A DNA stretch of 64,000 nt. Source: Candidatus Aminicenantales bacterium. GTDB lineage: Bacteria > Acidobacteriota > Aminicenantia > Aminicenantales > UBA4085. Under the pieces are notes generated by a model. It was given only the letters and a program-made list of their open reading frames with translations. It was not told the origin of the DNA and ran no database searches. The DNA is taken from positions 3,301 through 67,300 of the forward strand of contig JBAVVD010000060.1 in assembly GCA_049697115.1 (NCBI GenBank), given 5' to 3'. Position 1 is the first letter of the stretch. The number at the start of each line of letters is the position of its first letter. This document shows, in pieces, positions 3,642-39,315 of the stretch. Position numbers and translations under genes: made by a program.

Positions 3642-5372
3642 ATGCATATCATTGACTTCGGCTTTATCACCCTCTACCTGGCGGTTGTCCTGGGGCTCGG
3701 ATTCTGGTACCAGAAGAAAGCTTCAAGGGACCTCGAATCCTATTTTCTCGGCGGCAAGCGGCTGCACTGGCTGGCTCTCGCCATGTCCGGCTCGGTCTCC
3801 AATTTTGATATCACCGGCACCATGTGGATCGTGTCCATGCTCTTTATCCTGGGCATGAAATCCATGTGGATCCACTGGATGTGGGGATTCCTCATGGGCG
3901 CCTTTTTCCTGGCTTATATGGGAAAATGGGTGCGCCGCTCCAATGTCATGACCGGAGCGGAATGGATGGTGACACGGTTCGGCGATGACCGCGGCGGCCG
4001 AACGGCCCGCACGGCCTATGCCTTGATGGCCGTGCTCACTCAAGCCAGCTTCATCGGCTATGCGTTTCAGGGAATCGGAAAGTTCGTCTCGGTATATCTC
4101 CATCTCCCCTCGACTTTTTGCGCCCTGCTCATCATCGGCATCACAACCATCTATGTGATCCTGGGCGGACTGTACAGCGTAGTGGTCACGGATGTCCTGC
4201 AGACCGTGATTTTAACCATGGCCAGTATTGTCATCGCCGTCCTCTCCTACCGGCTTGTGAATCCTGAGATTCTCGGCCGCCTCCTGCCCGATGGATGGTT
4301 TTCTCTTGTTCCTTCCTGGCGCCTGGAGAATCTGGCGGGAACTGAGAACGCTCCCTATGAGCTATTCGGCGCCCTGGTCATGGTCTGGGTTTTGAAAGGC
4401 CTTCTTCTCAATGCCGGCGGGCCGGCCCAGATGTATGATTTTCAGCGCTTCCTCGCCGCCCGGAATGCCAGAGACGCCGCCAGGACAGGCGCCGCCTGGA
4501 GCTTTTTCCTCATCGTGCGTTGGGCGATGTGCATGGGCCTTGTGCTCCTGGCCCTGTCAGGAATTGCCAATGTCCAGGACCCCAAGAAAGTGATGCCCCT
4601 GGTCCTTCAGAAGTTCCTCCCGGTCGGCCTTCGCGGCCTGGTCATTGCCGGCCTTCTGTCCGCGTTCATGTCCACGTTCAGCTCCACGGTGAACAGCGGC
4701 GCCTCTTATATCGTCCGTGATTTCTGGCAGGCCTTATTCCGGCCTCAGGCCAGCCAGCGGCAACTGGTCAGAGCGGGCTATGCGGCCACAGTGGGGATTG
4801 TCCTTTTCGGCATCCTCATCGGTTTTCAGGCCCGCTCCATTCATCAGATCTGGAACTGGATGATGATGGCCCTGGGCGCAGGTGTGGTCATGCCCAATGT
4901 CCTCCGCTGGTATTGGTGGCGGCTCAACGGCTGGGGGTATGCGGCCGGAACAGCGGCCGGAATCCTGGGCTCAATTCTGGTCCTTTTCATGCCCGAATCC
5001 CCAATGTTTGTCACCTTTCCTCCGATCGTGGCCGCCTCTCTGGCCGTAAGCATCATTGTCTCTCTGATGACTCCCGCCGTCAAAGACACGGTGCTGGTTT
5101 CATTTTTTCAGACCGTCAGGCCGTTCGGTTTGTGGCGCTCCGTTAAAAAAACGGCCGTCATTGCCGGCGCGGCTCCGCTGCCCGCGACAGAACGGCCGCG
5201 GAGAATTCTCCTGAATACCGGACTGGGGATGGCCGCTGTCGCGGCGGCGTACCTTTTTCCGATGTTCCTGGTGGCGCACCGCCACCGTCAGGCGCTCATC
5301 TGGCTGGCTGTGGCCGCGGCCGCCATCACACTTTTATGGCGCACATGGTTCAGGCCGCTGCAGAAGGAGTGA
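3642..5372 (+). CDS. Sodium:solute symporter family (SSF) transporter
   Basis: 576 aa with many TM helices and an N-terminus typical of SSF transporters (YFLGGKRLHWLALAMSGSVSNFDITGTMW). Confidence 0.75.
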   Translation: MHIIDFGFITLYLAVVLGLGFWYQKKASRDLESYFLGGKRLHWLALAMSGSVSNFDITGTMWIVSMLFILGMKSMWIHWMWGFLMGAFFLAYMGKWVRRSNVMTGAEWMVTRFGDDRGGRTARTAYALMAVLTQASFIGYAFQGIGKFVSVYLHLPSTFCALLIIGITTIYVILGGLYSVVVTDVLQTVILTMASIVIAVLSYRLVNPEILGRLLPDGWFSLVPSWRLENLAGTENAPYELFGALVMVWVLKGLLLNAGGPAQMYDFQRFLAARNARDAARTGAAWSFFLIVRWAMCMGLVLLALSGIANVQDPKKVMPLVLQKFLPVGLRGLVIAGLLSAFMSTFSSTVNSGASYIVRDFWQALFRPQASQRQLVRAGYAATVGIVLFGILIGFQARSIHQIWNWMMMALGAGVVMPNVLRWYWWRLNGWGYAAGTAAGILGSILVLFMPESPMFVTFPPIVAASLAVSIIVSLMTPAVKDTVLVSFFQTVRPFGLWRSVKKTAVIAGAAPLPATERPRRILLNTGLGMAAVAAAYLFPMFLVAHRHRQALIWLAVAAAAITLLWRTWFRPLQKE

Positions 5373-5405
5373 AAGCCAGATGTCAAAATTCCCCGGACAA
5401 TGGGA

Positions 5406-5434
5406 TTGACTTTAAATCAGAAAAATCCTACAAT
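5406..5434 (+). promoter_or_regulatory. Sigma70-type promoter TTGACT-17-TACAAT; predicted TSS at or near the leader-peptide ATG (leaderless)
   Basis: Seen directly: ttgact (5406-5411), a 17-nt spacer, tacaat (5429-5434). The ATG at 5441 is 7 nt downstream with no SD. Confidence 0.5.
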
Positions 5435-5440
5435 GCGACC

Positions 5441-5545
5441 ATGCTCCCAGAGACAAATGAAAAGAGAACTTTCATTTGTCTGAATCTCTGCCTTTCATCC
5501 TATTATTTCTATTTCTATTTCGGGCGGTAACGCCCGAACTATATT
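5441..5545 (+). promoter_or_regulatory. Candidate Phe/Tyr leader peptide (MLPETNEKRTFICLNLCLSSYYFYFYFGR) and attenuator hairpins upstream of pheA-tyrA
   Basis: 30-codon ORF ending in TAT TAT TTC TAT TTC TAT TTC GGG CGG TAA. The stop lies in the loop of the GC hairpin cgggcg-gtaa-cgcccg (5521-5536), which is followed by a U-rich aacuauauucuuucc. A perfect 12-bp hairpin, agacaaatgaaa/tttcatttgtct, sits at 5451-5481 inside the ORF. Confidence 0.5.
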
Positions 5546-5602
5546 CTTTCCACCACTGAATTCCTTTTCAAAAATAATTCTTTAAATTTTTACAGGTGAA
5601 CC

Positions 5603-6688
5603 ATGAAAAACATTAACTGGAGGAATATTATGGAACTGAATGATCTCCGCCGGAAAATCGATGAAGTGGACTTCAAAATCTTAAAGCTCTTCAATGAACG
5701 AATGGAATTGGCCATTCAGACAAAAAAGCTGAAACCCGGAATCGAAGATCCTTTGCGGGAGAAAGAGATTCTGCAGAAAGTCGCCCGGCTCAGAACAGAG
5801 CTGCTGAGCCCCAATTTTTTAAATGCTGTTTACGTGCACGTTATTGAGGAAAGCCGCCGCCGGCAGGGAGAGAACCGTCTTCTTGTCGGCTTTCAGGGAG
5901 AGCACGGCGCTTTCAGCGAAGCGGCGGCCAGAAAGTATCTTCCGGACCAGGTTTATATTCCCTTTGCTGAATTCGAAGAGATCTTTCTCTCCGTCGAGCA
6001 AGGGATTCTCGACTTCGGTATCGTGCCGGTTGAAAATTCCCTGGGCGGCGCCGTGACCCAGGTGAACGACCTTCTAATCAAAACCCCGCTCTCGGTCGCC
6101 GGAGAAGTCAATATCCAAATCAGGCACTGCCTGCTGACTTTGCACGGATCGGATCATAAAGAAATCAAAGCCGTTTATTCCCATCCCCAGGCGTTGGCCC
6201 AGTGCAAATCATTCATCCTTCGGAATAAGCTCGAGGGAAGGCCTTATTACGACACGGCCGGGGCGGCCAAAATGCTGGCCATTGAAAGACCCCGGGCGGC
6301 AGCCGCAATCGCCAGTGAGCTCTGCGCCGGATTGTATCATCTGGAAGTCATCAAGGCGGGCATCGAGGACAATCCGAGGAACCTGACAAGATTTCTCATA
6401 CTGGGCAAAGAGCCCGCCAAAGAAGGAAACAAGTGCTCGCTCGTTTTCTCTGCTCCCCATAAAGTGGGAGCGCTCTTCCATGTCCTCAAAATCTTTACGG
6501 AAGCAGGGATTAACCTGACGCGTATCGAGTCAGTTCCCATCGTGGGGAAGGACATTCATTATGCCTTTTTTACGGACTTCCAGGGCTCTGACAGGGAACC
6601 GGTTGTGAAGGAAACCCTGGAGAGGGTGAAACAACAGTCTCTGACGTATAAATTTCTCGGCTGCTACACAGAGGAAAAAATCCAATGA
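5603..6688 (+). CDS. pheA: Bifunctional chorismate mutase / prephenate dehydratase (with ACT domain)
   Basis: CM motif (LRRKIDEVDFKILKLFNERMELAIQTKKLK), PDT domain (LVGFQGEHGAFSEAAARKY...VPVENSLGG) and a C-terminal ACT domain. SD aggtga upstream. Confidence 0.9.
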   Translation: MKNINWRNIMELNDLRRKIDEVDFKILKLFNERMELAIQTKKLKPGIEDPLREKEILQKVARLRTELLSPNFLNAVYVHVIEESRRRQGENRLLVGFQGEHGAFSEAAARKYLPDQVYIPFAEFEEIFLSVEQGILDFGIVPVENSLGGAVTQVNDLLIKTPLSVAGEVNIQIRHCLLTLHGSDHKEIKAVYSHPQALAQCKSFILRNKLEGRPYYDTAGAAKMLAIERPRAAAAIASELCAGLYHLEVIKAGIEDNPRNLTRFLILGKEPAKEGNKCSLVFSAPHKVGALFHVLKIFTEAGINLTRIESVPIVGKDIHYAFFTDFQGSDREPVVKETLERVKQQSLTYKFLGCYTEEKIQ

Positions 6689-11624: not shown

Positions 11625-11710
11625 TGCCGAGGGCCGGACTTGAACCGGCACGGTTGTTGCCAACCGAGGGATTTTAAGTCCCTTGCGTCTACCAATTCCG
11701 CCACCCCGGC
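11625..11710 (-). tRNA. tRNA-Leu (anticodon UAA), 86 nt, type II with long variable arm
   Basis: Reverse complement GCCGGGGTGGCGGAATTGGTAGACGCAAGGGACTTAAAATCCCTCGGTTGGCAACAACCGTGCCGGTTCAAGTCCGGCCCTCGGCA folds as a cloverleaf with anticodon loop CTTAAAA. Confidence 0.9.
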
Positions 11711-12118: not shown

Positions 12119-12284
12119 TTGATCTCCTCTTTTTTGTAATTATCATATAAAACGTGGCCAGGGTCAAATCCTATGGTCAAGAATATCGAAGGCGTCAATC
12201 ACGACGCCGAAACCCAAAGGAGATTCAGGGCAAAACGAACAGCGTCCTTGACCTGTCCCGGATTTCTGATTATGCTTCGGCACG

Positions 12285-14189
12285 ATGTTTAGAAGGAAGC
12301 ACCGAGGCAACAAAGCGTCCGCGAGCGGGCTCAGCCAAAAACCGGATTCTTATCCCCCCGAATCCGTTTATAACCATAGAATCAAAACTCTGGACGTCCT
12401 TCTGAAAAAACTAAAAAAACAGGGCACTGCCCTGGGAATCCTGAAACTGAGCCTGGTACTCGGCGCTCTCCTTGCCTTATGCCACGTTTTTACCGCCAGT
12501 CCGGCTATTTCCTGGGGCATCGTCGGCCTGGCTCTGGTACTTTTCATCACAACGGCCGTGATACACGAATCCATTATCCGTAAGGCCAGGCACCTTAACG
12601 CCCTGAAAACCATTAACAAAAACGAAATTAAATTCCTTTGCCACGAGTTCCCCGAGGCCGCCCACACTGGGGAAGAATTCCAGAATTCCGACCATTATTA
12701 TACGCCCGGCCTGGATATCTTCGGTGAAAAGGGTTTATTCCATTACGTGAACCGGTCCGTCACTGCAATCGGCCGGCGCCACCTGGCAGGTTGGTTGCAG
12801 TCCAAGGCCGAGCCGGAGGAAATAAAGAAACGACAAGAGGCCGTGGCAGAACTGTCTCAAAAAATCGACCTTCGTCAAAACGTCGCCAGCTACGGCATGT
12901 TTATAGACGACTCCTCCCAGAAACTCGATTCCCTACTCAAATTCCTCCATGAACCCTTCCTCATCCTGGGCAAAAAATGGCTGCTGGTTTTCATGTTTGT
13001 GTGGCCCATGCTCACCATCTGTGCCGCGGTTTCAATCATTTTTAAAATTCCCCTGGTCGTCTTTCTCTCCTTTGCCTTGAGCCAGTATGCAATCAATAAA
13101 AAATTCTCGAAACAGCTTGCGTATTTATACAGCCTGACGTCCCGAAGCCGAAAAATCTTAAAAGCGTATTCCCGTATCATCGGAGAAATCGAGACCGAAA
13201 ACTTCAACAGCGAAAGACTCATTCAACTGAAAGATCGATTATCTAAGGCTAAACACAGGGCGTCGGTGTGCATTAGCCGATTTTCCAGGCTGATGGAATG
13301 GTTCGATGCCCGAAACGGGATGCTTCACAGCTTATTCAACAATATACTTCTGTGGGATCTCCACTGCGTTTACCACATTGAAAAATGGCGAAAACAAACA
13401 GCCGCCCATGTTCCCCAATGGTTCAACGTGATCGGTGAATTCGAAGCCCTGTCCGGGTTTGCCGCGCTGCATTTCAACAATCCCCAATGGACCATGCCGG
13501 AAATCCATGAGAACTCATTCCGCCTGCACGCCCAAAACCTGGGACACCCGTTGATTCCGGAAAAAGAACGGGTGTGCAGCAGCATCGAACTGGGCAAAAA
13601 TGGGAAGGCCATCCCAGGGGGAAACCTGGCCATCGTTACCGGTCCCAACATGGCGGGAAAAAGTACATTCCTGAAAGCCGTCGGCATCAACACGGTTTTA
13701 GCCTTTGCCGGCGCACCGGTTTGCGCGGAACGATTGGTTATTTCCCCGGTAAAACTCATGACCAGCTTGAAAACAAGCGATTCTCTGGACAAGCATTTAT
13801 CCCTTTTTTATGCCGAACTGCAGCGCTTGAAAATGATCCTGGACGGCATTTCCCGCAGCGAACCGGTGTTTTTCCTCATCGATGAGATACTCAAAGGCAC
13901 CAACGCCCTGGACCGCCAAAAAGGCTCCATAGCCCTGTTGAAACAGTTGATGCGCAGCCACGCCAACGGCATTGTCGCCACGCACGACCTGGAATTAACT
14001 AAATTGGAAAACCTCGAAGAATGGGAAAAGTCCGGCGGCCAATACCCCGAAGGAATAAATATTGCCAATTATCATTTTGACGGTTATATCAAGGAAGATA
14101 AGCTGCTGTTCGATTACCATTTAAAAAAAGGCATGTGTAAAAGTCACAATGCCCTTTTATTAATGAAAAATATGGGCATCGATATATAG
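12285..14189 (+). CDS. MutS-related ABC-ATPase (MutS domain V only) with N-terminal transmembrane region
   Basis: 634 aa. TM helices at the N-terminus and middle, then a MutS ATPase domain (GPNMAGKSTFLKAVG..., FLIDEILKGTNALDRQKGSIALL..., ATHDLELT). No mismatch-binding or connector domains. Confidence 0.65.
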   Translation: MFRRKHRGNKASASGLSQKPDSYPPESVYNHRIKTLDVLLKKLKKQGTALGILKLSLVLGALLALCHVFTASPAISWGIVGLALVLFITTAVIHESIIRKARHLNALKTINKNEIKFLCHEFPEAAHTGEEFQNSDHYYTPGLDIFGEKGLFHYVNRSVTAIGRRHLAGWLQSKAEPEEIKKRQEAVAELSQKIDLRQNVASYGMFIDDSSQKLDSLLKFLHEPFLILGKKWLLVFMFVWPMLTICAAVSIIFKIPLVVFLSFALSQYAINKKFSKQLAYLYSLTSRSRKILKAYSRIIGEIETENFNSERLIQLKDRLSKAKHRASVCISRFSRLMEWFDARNGMLHSLFNNILLWDLHCVYHIEKWRKQTAAHVPQWFNVIGEFEALSGFAALHFNNPQWTMPEIHENSFRLHAQNLGHPLIPEKERVCSSIELGKNGKAIPGGNLAIVTGPNMAGKSTFLKAVGINTVLAFAGAPVCAERLVISPVKLMTSLKTSDSLDKHLSLFYAELQRLKMILDGISRSEPVFFLIDEILKGTNALDRQKGSIALLKQLMRSHANGIVATHDLELTKLENLEEWEKSGGQYPEGINIANYHFDGYIKEDKLLFDYHLKKGMCKSHNALLLMKNMGIDI

Positions 14190-15613: not shown

Positions 15614-16816
15614 TTATTCGTACCTGGCGCGGCCGAATATCGCCAGTCCGAAGACATACATAAAACACACGGCGGGCACCAGCATTGCCGCGTGCATACC
15701 GTAATTGTCCCCAACCCATCCCACCACTGGCGGAATCAGAGCCCCGCCCATGATGGCGGTGCAGAGAAGTCCGGAGATCGTGCCGTGGTTTTCTGTGAAA
15801 CTGTTGATTGTCCCGCTCATCATCAATGTGATGAGGACAGAGGTGAAGAATCCGCAGGCGGCAAATCCAACAGCGGTCAAACTTCTGGACCCGAAGTTGG
15901 CGGCCAGCAGGCAAACCACCGCCATGAATGAATAGAGCCGCAGGATCCTCCGGCTGCCGAACCGGTTGAGAACCGCGCCGCTCACAAGGCGGCCTGTGCC
16001 CTGCAGCCCCCAGAACAGGGCCACGATCAGCGCCGGCAGGGTGGGCAAGACTTTACGGAAGAGGCCGGTGGCCTCGAGATTGACGATGTCCGCGGTCAGC
16101 CCATGGACGCGCTCAAAAAACTTGACGATCCAGGATGCGGTTCCGACCTCTGCCCCGACATAGAAAAAGACGCCCAGGGCGTAGACCCGAACAAGGGGAT
16201 TCTTCAGAATTTTGCCCAGTTGGTCCACGCGGATCCGGTCGCCGGCCGCAGTTACCGTGGACGGAAAGCGCGAAAAGGCCAGCGGCGCCAGCAGCGCCAG
16301 GCAAAGCACTGCAAATAAGATGTAGAGGCTCTGCCAGCTTCGGCCCGTCCCCCGGATGAAGGCCAGCACGAATGGCCCGAGGAAAGCGCCAATACCGCAG
16401 AACCCGATGGTCAGGGTCAGATTGCGATGATAATTCTCCGGGCGGTCCAGATGCTGGATCAGCGGGTTGCCGGCGGTCTGCAGGATGGTCACACCCACCC
16501 CGACTGTAAATATCATGGCCAGCATCAATGGGTAGTCCCGGGCCCATGCCACAACCAGACAGCCCAAACCCATCAGGATCACTCCGGCCAAAATGAGCGG
16601 CTTGGCCCCGAAACGGTCCATGATCAGGCCGGTGGGAATGGAAAAGAGGCCGTAGGCGATGAAGAAGCTGAACGCCAGGAAGCCGGCAGCAAACAGGCTC
16701 AATTGATATTGTCGGATGACTTCAGGAATGATCACGCCCAGGATGTTCGTGATCATGCCAAACGTAAAGTAGGCCAAAAAGAAGAATCCCAAGAGACCGG
16801 AAGGACGCTCTGACAT
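15614..16816 (-). CDS. MFS sugar transporter, FHS (glucose/galactose/fucose:H+ symporter) family
   Basis: 400 aa with 12 TM helices and an N-terminal region like GluP/FucP (FFFLAYFTFGMITNILGVIIPEV...). Directly upstream of the ROK kinase (operon). Confidence 0.75.
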   Translation of the reverse strand: MSERPSGLLGFFFLAYFTFGMITNILGVIIPEVIRQYQLSLFAAGFLAFSFFIAYGLFSIPTGLIMDRFGAKPLILAGVILMGLGCLVVAWARDYPLMLAMIFTVGVGVTILQTAGNPLIQHLDRPENYHRNLTLTIGFCGIGAFLGPFVLAFIRGTGRSWQSLYILFAVLCLALLAPLAFSRFPSTVTAAGDRIRVDQLGKILKNPLVRVYALGVFFYVGAEVGTASWIVKFFERVHGLTADIVNLEATGLFRKVLPTLPALIVALFWGLQGTGRLVSGAVLNRFGSRRILRLYSFMAVVCLLAANFGSRSLTAVGFAACGFFTSVLITLMMSGTINSFTENHGTISGLLCTAIMGGALIPPVVGWVGDNYGMHAAMLVPAVCFMYVFGLAIFGRARYE

Positions 16817-39243: not shown

Positions 39244-39315
39244 GGGCCTATAGCTCAGCGGTAGAGCCACCGGCTCATAACCGGCAGGTCCCAGGTTCGA
39301 ATCCTGGTAGGCCCA
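39244..39315 (+). tRNA. tRNA with CAT anticodon (body resembles tRNA-Ile; likely tRNA-Ile2(k2CAU) or elongator Met)
   Basis: GGGCCTATAGCTCAGCGGTAGAGCCACCGGCTCATAACCGGCAGGTCCCAGGTTCGAATCCTGGTAGGCCCA. The acceptor stem GGGCCTA/TAGGCCC is Ile-like and the anticodon loop is CTCATAA. Confidence 0.85.

Follow-up and report, generated by a model that had tools for sequence, protein, structure and literature searches.

Most documented instances of leader-peptide attenuation come from Proteobacteria and Actinobacteria and a few from Firmicutes, and attenuators are essentially uncharacterised in the wider relatives of Candidatus Aminicenantota (PMC2965389). By analogy of design, the closest precedents for the element described here are the leaderless leader peptides of actinobacteria (aroR, and trpL, ilvL and leuL of Corynebacterium and Streptomyces). 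In Corynebacterium glutamicum, according to PMC11802643, which cites Neshat et al. 2014, the leader peptide encoded by aroR carries Phe-Tyr-Phe, lies upstream of the DAHP synthase gene aroF and responds to Phe limitation. All eight leader peptides of Streptomyces lividans were reported to be leaderless, several of them without a U-tract terminator (PMC8079986), and the leaderless poly-Cys small open reading frames (sORFs) of mycobacteria, earlier suspected to be Rho-dependent (PMC1262725), are attenuators that were shown to act translationally (bioRxiv 10.1101/834739). We analysed a 64-kb stretch of a Candidatus Aminicenantales contig (the window, to which all bare coordinates refer) in which a 29-codon open reading frame (ORF) ending in a run of Tyr and Phe codons precedes pheA-tyrA. 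We consider it probable that this leader belongs to a ribosome-mediated device which senses the supply of Phe and Tyr and controls pheA-tyrA in a Ca. Aminicenantales bacterium, and that its output is non-classical.

Like aroR, the window element would be a short leaderless ORF with mixed Phe and Tyr codons upstream of aromatic biosynthesis genes, and, like several of the actinobacterial leaders, its family for the most part has no typical U-tract terminator. It differs from aroR in phylum (Ca. Aminicenantota), in the length of the aromatic run (5-7 codons across its family, compared with 3), and in that the run abuts a conserved hairpin holding the stop codon in its loop, with no terminator/antiterminator pair found here. 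The two were compared by description rather than by sequence, and an origin independent of aroR is likely. The pheL leader of Escherichia coli is also Phe-rich, lies upstream of pheA and senses charged tRNA through the speed of the ribosome, as the element here would; however, pheL is led by a Shine-Dalgarno (SD) sequence, uses Phe codons only, and folds into alternative 1:2, 2:3 and 3:4 hairpins with a U-tract terminator. The module in the window, in contrast, is apparently leaderless, alternates Tyr with Phe, and has tyrA in the operon; only one hairpin is conserved, the U-tract is not, and an antiterminator is lacking. It resembles pheL in principle but is not a member of the pheL family. 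What is new is the phylum, the long alternating Tyr/Phe run, and an invariant stop-in-loop hairpin without terminator features.

An earlier note on this DNA had proposed a Phe/Tyr-sensing attenuator of the pheL kind on a leaderless transcript. The near-consensus promoter that it described (TTGACT-17 nt-TACAAT) is present and matches 10 of 12 consensus positions, ranking among the best in the first 20 kb, where 27 promoter-like sites were counted compared with 11.8 expected from shuffled sequences. The 29-aa ORF from the ATG at 5441 and the seven tandem aromatic codons two codons before its stop were confirmed as well. Six nucleotides (GCGACC) separate the -10 hexamer from this ATG, and its A, 7 nt after the hexamer, falls at the predicted transcription start site (TSS), which points to a leaderless mRNA; since the promoter occupies the space of any SD sequence before the leader ATG, translation would have to be leaderless. 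The ORF ends in YYFYFYF-G-R-stop, with the UAA at 5528-5530, and no other F/Y/W run in the window, read in all six frames, has more than five codons, compared with seven here. What the sequences show is the anatomy of the element and its conservation; we infer that the start is leaderless, that the codons serve for sensing, and which way the regulation runs. The leader frame is open upstream to an ATG at 5336, within the 3' end of a symporter gene, and an ORF finder therefore reports a 64-aa ORF (5336-5530, + strand); this spurious product could be annotated by gene callers in place of the 29-codon leader.

The 5' arm of the stop-codon hairpin begins at the last Phe codon of the run. The earlier note had placed the stop codon in the loop of a 6-bp GC hairpin; the stop does lie in the GUAA loop, but the stem is 8 bp long. 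The local fold has a free energy of -15.2 kcal/mol (z = -4.67), and none of 200 shuffled sequences was equally stable. The U-rich stretch said to follow the hairpin (CUAUAUUCUUUCC) is present but weak, with a borderline tail score of -2.60 relative to a cutoff of -2.5 (TransTermHP-style), and it is not conserved, being absent in four relatives. The perfect 12-bp hairpin noted in the 5' part of the ORF (5451-5481) is real but not conserved, and it is lineage-specific. A hairpin stands at a similar place in only four of the six loci compared below, with none in L017 or L023.

The same module was found in five further distinct loci. These relatives are Aminicenantes-like metagenome loci that were reached through PheA homologues and then through DAHP-synthase homologues from one of them, so that six distinct loci were compared: the window, L002, L013, L016, L017 (to which L018-L022 are equivalent) and L023. 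PheA or DAHP synthase is 59-93% identical across the six, and three operon layouts stand behind the module, namely pheA-tyrA, aroG-pheA-tyrA and an aroG-led shikimate operon. The earlier note had suggested looking for a Tyr/Phe-rich mini-ORF upstream of pheA in relatives, and had counted the lack of a conserved one among the signs that would refute its proposal; such an ORF recurs in all five loci, and the proposal is not refuted on this point. The promoter reads TTGAC[AT]-17 nt-TAnnnT-6 nt-ATG in every locus, with identical spacing and with C as the last of the 6 nt, and each leader ORF, 20-34 residues long, has the aromatic run at its end, followed by UAA in the hairpin loop. The distance from promoter to hairpin varies (78, 63, 60, 57, 93 and 51 nt), and in six of six loci it is a multiple of 3 with frame 0 open. 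Between the window and L002, whose PheA proteins are 73% identical, the only changes in the run are synonymous (TAT>TAC and TTC>TTT), and a 6-nt indel just upstream of the run is in frame. The runs in the relatives are YYFYFYF, FYFWFYF, FYFGFYF, FYYFYF and YYVYF, with Phe and Tyr codons swapped, so that 4-7 aromatic codons stand within the last 5-7 positions before Gly-Arg/Leu-stop.

Because the promoter and the hairpin, two independent anchors, keep the frame at six lengths, and because the run changes by synonymous substitutions and Phe/Tyr swaps, translation of the leader ORF appears well supported, and the same can be said of a leaderless leader peptide with aromatic codons at its end. The central proposal of the earlier note, a Phe/Tyr-rich leader ORF on a leaderless transcript that is tied to pheA-tyrA, likewise gains support from the conserved module, its geometry and its frame. 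The N-terminal two-thirds of the peptides are unrelated among loci in both sequence and length, which argues for a leader peptide rather than a functional protein product, with selection acting on the reading of the aromatic codons. The module was seen only with Phe/Tyr-making operons among the loci compared. It is not universal among close PheA relatives, given that in L008 (2033-2172), a low-GC relative with aroG-pheA and a PheA that is 57% identical, the 140-nt AT-rich upstream region lacks an aromatic leader ORF. The near-identical strains L017-L022 had zero leader polymorphism and were uninformative.

The hairpin is conserved as RNA. The motif TTYGGGC-N3-7-GCCCGAR with UAA in the loop occurs once per locus in all six, the hairpin takes the form UUCGGGC(G)-loop-(C)GCCCGAA, and not a nucleotide varies in the core UAUUUCGGGC..UAA..GCCCGA. 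The hairpin is significantly stable in every locus (z = -2.8 to -6.05), and its non-coding 3' arm stays unchanged between diverging flanks. In L023 a CUC (Leu) codon replaces CGN (Arg) and the paired C at the stem base is retained, arguing that the constraint is on the RNA and not on the Gly-Arg residues. In L013 (225-261) and L016 (1405-1442) the hairpin is extended over four codons of the aromatic run, and the extension is compensatory (UGG:CCA in L013 vs. GGG:CCC in L016). Sensing of Trp through the Trp codon of L013 (FYFWFYF) was considered and rejected; its sister L016 has GGG at that position, compensated in the hairpin extension. A role of the hairpin as terminator of the upstream symporter gene was also rejected, as the hairpin sits downstream of the conserved promoter and the upstream genes are different in every locus. 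Downstream of the hairpin, the spacer has more C than G in all six loci. Its best 78-nt C/G ratio is 2.67 in the window, where the 78 nt begin at 5541 and rank at the 99.7th percentile; across the six loci the ratio is 2.07-3.40, in none of them lower than the 99.6th percentile of that locus.

Features of the window locus and the leaders of related loci (bare coordinates are window positions)
Locus	Feature	Position	Strand	Remarks
Window	-35 hexamer TTGACT (predicted)	5406-5411	+	TTGAC[AT] at equal relative position in 6/6 family loci
Window	-10 hexamer TACAAT (predicted)	5429-5434	+	17-nt spacer before it; TAnnnT with 17-nt spacer in 6/6 loci
Window	Putative leader ORF, 29 codons, MLPETNEKRTFICLNLCLSSYYFYFYFGR, then stop	5441-5530	+	ORF map and conserved geometry in 6/6 loci; operon pheA-tyrA
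Window	Perfect 12-bp 5' hairpin AGACAAAUGAAA/UUUCAUUUGUCU, 7-nt loop	5451-5462/5470-5481	+	z = -2.08; inside 5' half of leader ORF
Window	Seven aromatic codons TAT TAT TTC TAT TTC TAT TTC (YYFYFYF)	5501-5521	+	Putative regulatory run
Window	Stop-codon hairpin UUCGGGCG-GUAA-CGCCCGAA	5519-5538	+	8-bp stem; UAA in GUAA loop
Window	G-poor, C>G, pyrimidine/A-rich spacer, including the weak U-rich tail	5539-5618	+	Candidate rut-like Rho-loading region
Window	pheA Shine-Dalgarno sequence GGAGG	5619-5623	+	6 nt before ATG at 5630
Window	pheA, bifunctional chorismate mutase/prephenate dehydratase with ACT, 352 aa	5630-6688	+	Pfam CM_2, PDT and ACT
Window	tyrA, prephenate dehydrogenase, 257 aa	6685-7458	+	Pfam PDH_N; 4-nt overlap (ATGA) with pheA
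Window	tRNA gene	11625-11710	-	With the next row, sole Rfam matches above gathering score in the window
Window	tRNA gene	39244-39315	+
L002	Leader MAIEKKFFICVNSLPYYFYFYFGR, then stop			Operon pheA-tyrA
L013	Leader MLTTGNRLTNVTRSFYFWFYFGR, then stop			Operon aroG-aroB-aroD-aroE/K-aroA-aroC-pheA-tyrA, seen whole
L016	Leader MNTTGISSAASRSFYFGFYFGR, then stop			aroG-aroB-aroD... (fetched stretch ends in aroD)
L017 (= L018-L022)	Leader MLSSEIVDSARPTGSPFSVKSALSASFYYFYFGR, then stop			Operon aroG-pheA-tyrA
L023	Leader MLFVIAGPSIRATYYVYFGL, then stop			aroG-aroB-aroD... (fetched stretch ends in aroD)

We propose that a sigma-70-type promoter would start transcription at the A of the leader AUG, yielding a leaderless mRNA to which 70S ribosomes presumably bind directly and whose 29-codon ORF they would translate. 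Only the end of the ORF would matter, that is, the seven Tyr/Phe codons and the Gly-Arg-stop that follows them, the last Phe, Gly and Arg codons and the stop forming the 5' arm and loop of the conserved GC hairpin. With charged tRNA-Phe or tRNA-Tyr in short supply, the ribosome would dwell on the run and cover the pyrimidine-rich tract together with the base of the hairpin, and the operon would be expressed more strongly; when the charged tRNAs are plentiful, the ribosome would terminate in the hairpin loop and leave, the hairpin and its flanks would be free, and attenuation would follow. The sensor half of this scheme, in which a ribosome reads Phe/Tyr codons beside a structured element and in front of Phe/Tyr genes, is well supported. 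The output is the least certain step, and it is not a classical terminator/antiterminator switch. Our tentative preference, short of an even chance, is for Rho-dependent or otherwise non-canonical premature termination, in which the tract of aromatic codons would act together with the hairpin and with the spacer, rich in C and poor in G, as a Rho-loading site that a stalled ribosome would mask. This Rho-type model is favoured because it gives the right sign wherever the ribosome stalls in the run. Translational control through the SD sequence comes after it as a possible output, intrinsic termination, perhaps in the window lineage only, seems more doubtful, and some other output is given the smallest share. 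A weak intrinsic terminator may contribute in the window itself.

Two well-known Rho-dependent systems offer partial parallels to this preferred output. The tnaC leader senses free Trp through the nascent peptide at a stop codon, not through hungry codons, and is Rho-dependent, and the lambda tR1 terminator is a Rho-dependent site composed of rutA, boxB and rutB. As in tnaC-tnaA, a ribosome held at the end of the leader ORF would adjoin a C-rich, G-poor Rho-loading region, recognised here by composition, and as boxB does in tR1, the hairpin here parts two pyrimidine-rich halves. It is conceivable, though we regard it as doubtful, that a hitherto undescribed attenuator design is conserved across Aminicenantes in which the hungry-codon run of a leaderless leader peptide, the stop-in-loop hairpin and a C-rich tract make up a split Rho-loading site, with neither terminator nor antiterminator, and a ribosome stalled on Phe/Tyr codons turns the operon on by masking this site alone.

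The resemblance to pheL calls for an account in which the hairpin at 5519-5538 and its U-rich tail are an intrinsic terminator that a stalled ribosome prevents from acting, whether because an antiterminator forms or because the ribosome covers the 5' arm. The window hairpin does pass a simple terminator scan (8 bp, 6 GC, 5 U in 8), its tail score just clears the cutoff, and that of L013 is better (-3.03); moreover, the run abuts the stem, and a ribosome on the last three aromatic codons would melt it. However, the mutually exclusive anti-terminator and terminator structures that the earlier note had suggested looking for did not appear. In minimum free energy (MFE) and centroid folds of the full leader, two hairpins formed independently of each other and nothing competed with the stop-codon hairpin for pairing, and ribosome footprints imposed at three stall positions in the six loci produced no alternative helix. 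Four of the six loci (L002, L016, L017 and L023) are essentially devoid of a U-tract, with tail scores of -1.5 to -1.96 and 0-1 U in the first 8 nt, and terminator-like sites in this genome barely exceed the expectation from shuffled sequences. By standard footprint dimensions, a ribosome that stalls on the earliest hungry codon (codons -9 to -7) would be too far upstream to melt the stem, and a lone terminator hairpin, left free by such a stall, would therefore give the wrong sign. Rfam searches returned no relevant match in the window at the gathering score, at 5300-5700 at E <= 10 or in six related loci at E <= 1, and no leader family (Phe, Trp, His, Leu or Thr) was hit at 5300-5700 (E <= 10) or in these six loci (E <= 1); the weak matches to rseX and gltS are chance hits driven by the hairpin. 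The Phe leader model is RF01859. With no antiterminator pairing, no conserved U-tract or 5' hairpin and no Rfam match, the claim of an E. coli pheL architecture did not hold, and we consider this account quite unlikely. Translational attenuation of the poly-Cys type would instead have the vacated leader RNA pair with the SD sequence of pheA or aroG unless a stalled ribosome prevents it, loss of transcript being secondary polarity. In the free-RNA folds the SD is indeed mostly paired (its probability of being unpaired is 0.05, 0.01 and 0.14 in the window, L002 and L016, respectively), and in the MFE folds of the window and L002 it pairs with the pyrimidine tract that lies in and just before the aromatic run. 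Pairing of the tract with the SD is proven for the leaderless poly-Cys sORFs (bioRxiv 10.1101/834739), and the actinobacterial LEU element pairs its Leu codons with the SD (PMC1262725). The window element also resembles the mycobacterial Ms5788A in being an apparently leaderless sORF with a codon run at the 3' end, about 70-100 nt of spacer up to the first biosynthetic gene, and no clear intrinsic terminator (bioRxiv 10.1101/834739). Ms5788A, though, has a very stable tract-SD duplex and acts translationally, whereas here the tract:SD and spacer:SD duplexes were no better than mononucleotide shuffles in five of six loci (the best was L023, p = 0.04, uncorrected), and a footprint on the run hardly changed SD accessibility in any of the six; the SD-pairing and stall results are thermodynamic modelling only. 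In addition, the most conserved RNA feature here, the local stop-codon hairpin, would be left without a role. We therefore regard this explanation as unlikely.

The Phe/Tyr codons would be incidental if the conserved unit were an RNA element (pyrimidine tract plus hairpin) for a protein or ligand, or if the product were a functional aromatic-rich micropeptide. Such an element would fit the invariant nucleotides of the hairpin core and the co-variation of the UGG/GGG codon with the hairpin extension, and in the actinobacterial ilvB and leuA leaders the behaviour of mutants in the regulatory codons departed from the expectations of classical attenuation (PMC1262725). What speaks against it is the frame kept between independent anchors in six of six loci at six lengths, the restriction of changes in the run to synonymous ones or Phe/Tyr swaps, the ATG exactly at the predicted +1 in all six, and the exclusive association of the module with Phe/Tyr-making operons; a micropeptide is further disfavoured by the lack of conservation in the N-terminal peptide sequence. 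We judge a non-sensing element to be very unlikely. That a promoter-like site, a short ORF and a hairpin merely happen to lie together in AT-rich intergenic DNA could be entertained from the window, given that short ORFs and hairpins are common between genes and that the promoter scan is a consensus match only. The comparative data effectively refute it, the composite module being present in five further divergent loci; the seven-codon run is also unique in 64 kb and six frames, and the hairpin is far more stable than shuffles of it (z = -4.67).

Several points nevertheless weigh against a ribosome-mediated Phe/Tyr sensor with Rho-type output. The TSS, translation and regulation are all read from the sequence. 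The six distinct instances probably represent about four independent lineages, and the stem is invariant, so that the core offers no covariation. In L023 there are only four aromatic codons, within the five-codon run YYVYF, and the co-variation of UGG/GGG with the hairpin extension in L013 and L016 implies that part of the run (the Trp/Gly position) is constrained as RNA. If the hairpin itself is the off-signal, only stalls at about the last three codons would melt the stem, which is a kinetic problem. The argument for Rho is one of base composition, and the excess of C over G could merely reflect pyrimidine-rich codons and anti-SD-like tracts.

The earlier note had put pheA about 70 nt after the hairpin, with its start at 5603. 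The start is most likely at 5630, because a GGAGG lies 6 nt upstream of that ATG and the deposited protein begins there; the proposed start was 27 nt too early, and the distances to pheA are 91 nt from the hairpin and 99 nt from the leader ORF. The PheA of the window is 100% identical over 352 aa to NCBI MGB8952853.1, from a Ca. Aminicenantales metagenome-assembled genome (MAG). The next gene after tyrA is convergent, so that tyrA is the last gene of the operon.

Other searches added little. A genome-contig scan with PheA gave one distant Faecousia match (33% identity) and no relatives. The metagenome DNA pattern TWYx5-GGNCGNTAACGNCC recovered the L002 contig and three chance matches antisense to an rplT-like region; this pattern was too narrow, as it demanded the window-type 3' arm TAACGNCC. 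The broader pattern TAYTTYGGGCNNTAAGCCCGA had no match in viral contigs, and a full-text literature search found no relevant paper joining Aminicenantes with leader peptides.

Some further observations were made in the related loci and elsewhere in the window. In L024 (1348-1470; identical in L025), which belongs to a different lineage and whose DAHP synthase is 76% identical to that of L013, a distinct aromatic-rich mini-ORF, MAIAGSSGTWSYSFGAFSFGYRYQENH followed by a stop codon, lies between trpB-trpA and aroG-aroB. Its W, Y and F codons are interspersed, and two strong adjacent helices are predicted, the first spanning the ORF and the second (AUCAGGAAAACCAC...GUGGUUUUUCUGAU) holding the UAG stop in its loop. 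This element gives the impression of an aromatic leader that was built independently and that once more has its stop in a predicted hairpin loop. A 17-nt block, UCCCAAGGGAAAAAACCG, is common to the spacers of L017 (1454-1471) and L023 (1418-1435), where it lies after the C-rich tract and before the SD; the predicted partner of the block differs, being a U-run upstream in L017 and downstream in L023. Many relatives by PheA (55-58%) and DAHP synthase (73-76%) are labelled Candidatus Micrarchaeota/Bilamarchaeum (DPANN), some on contigs of 200-680 kb, which suggests gene transfer with Aminicenantes-like bacteria or mis-binning. Within the window, TTGACC-17 nt-TATGCT at 12248-12287 (+ strand) stands 8 nt ahead of the ATG that opens a 634-aa MutS-family ORF (12285-14189; MutS_III and MutS_V), a second candidate leaderless mRNA that hints at leaderless starts for ordinary genes. 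On the minus strand at 16947-16838, a 24-codon ORF, MFQGMERAENVQRSRRFAYCLCIN and then a stop, has its ATG 5 nt after TTGACT-18 nt-TACTAT and lies just upstream of an MFS transporter gene (15614-16816, - strand). It has no obvious regulatory codon run and is possibly another leaderless upstream ORF.

The locus provides a comparatively supported case of a leader peptide in an uncultured candidate phylum and suggests that leaderless translation is used there. With a promoter, about 25 codons and one hairpin, it is a compact natural design for converting stalling into control without the textbook terminator/antiterminator pair. If the split Rho-loading design is true, leader-peptide sensing would have evolved independently, and coupled to Rho, in a candidate phylum without known regulation of this kind. 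For annotation, the analysis adds a small ORF that had not been annotated and corrects the start of pheA; for the metabolism read from Aminicenantes MAGs, the synthesis of Phe and that of Tyr appear to be co-regulated by the supply of charged tRNA.

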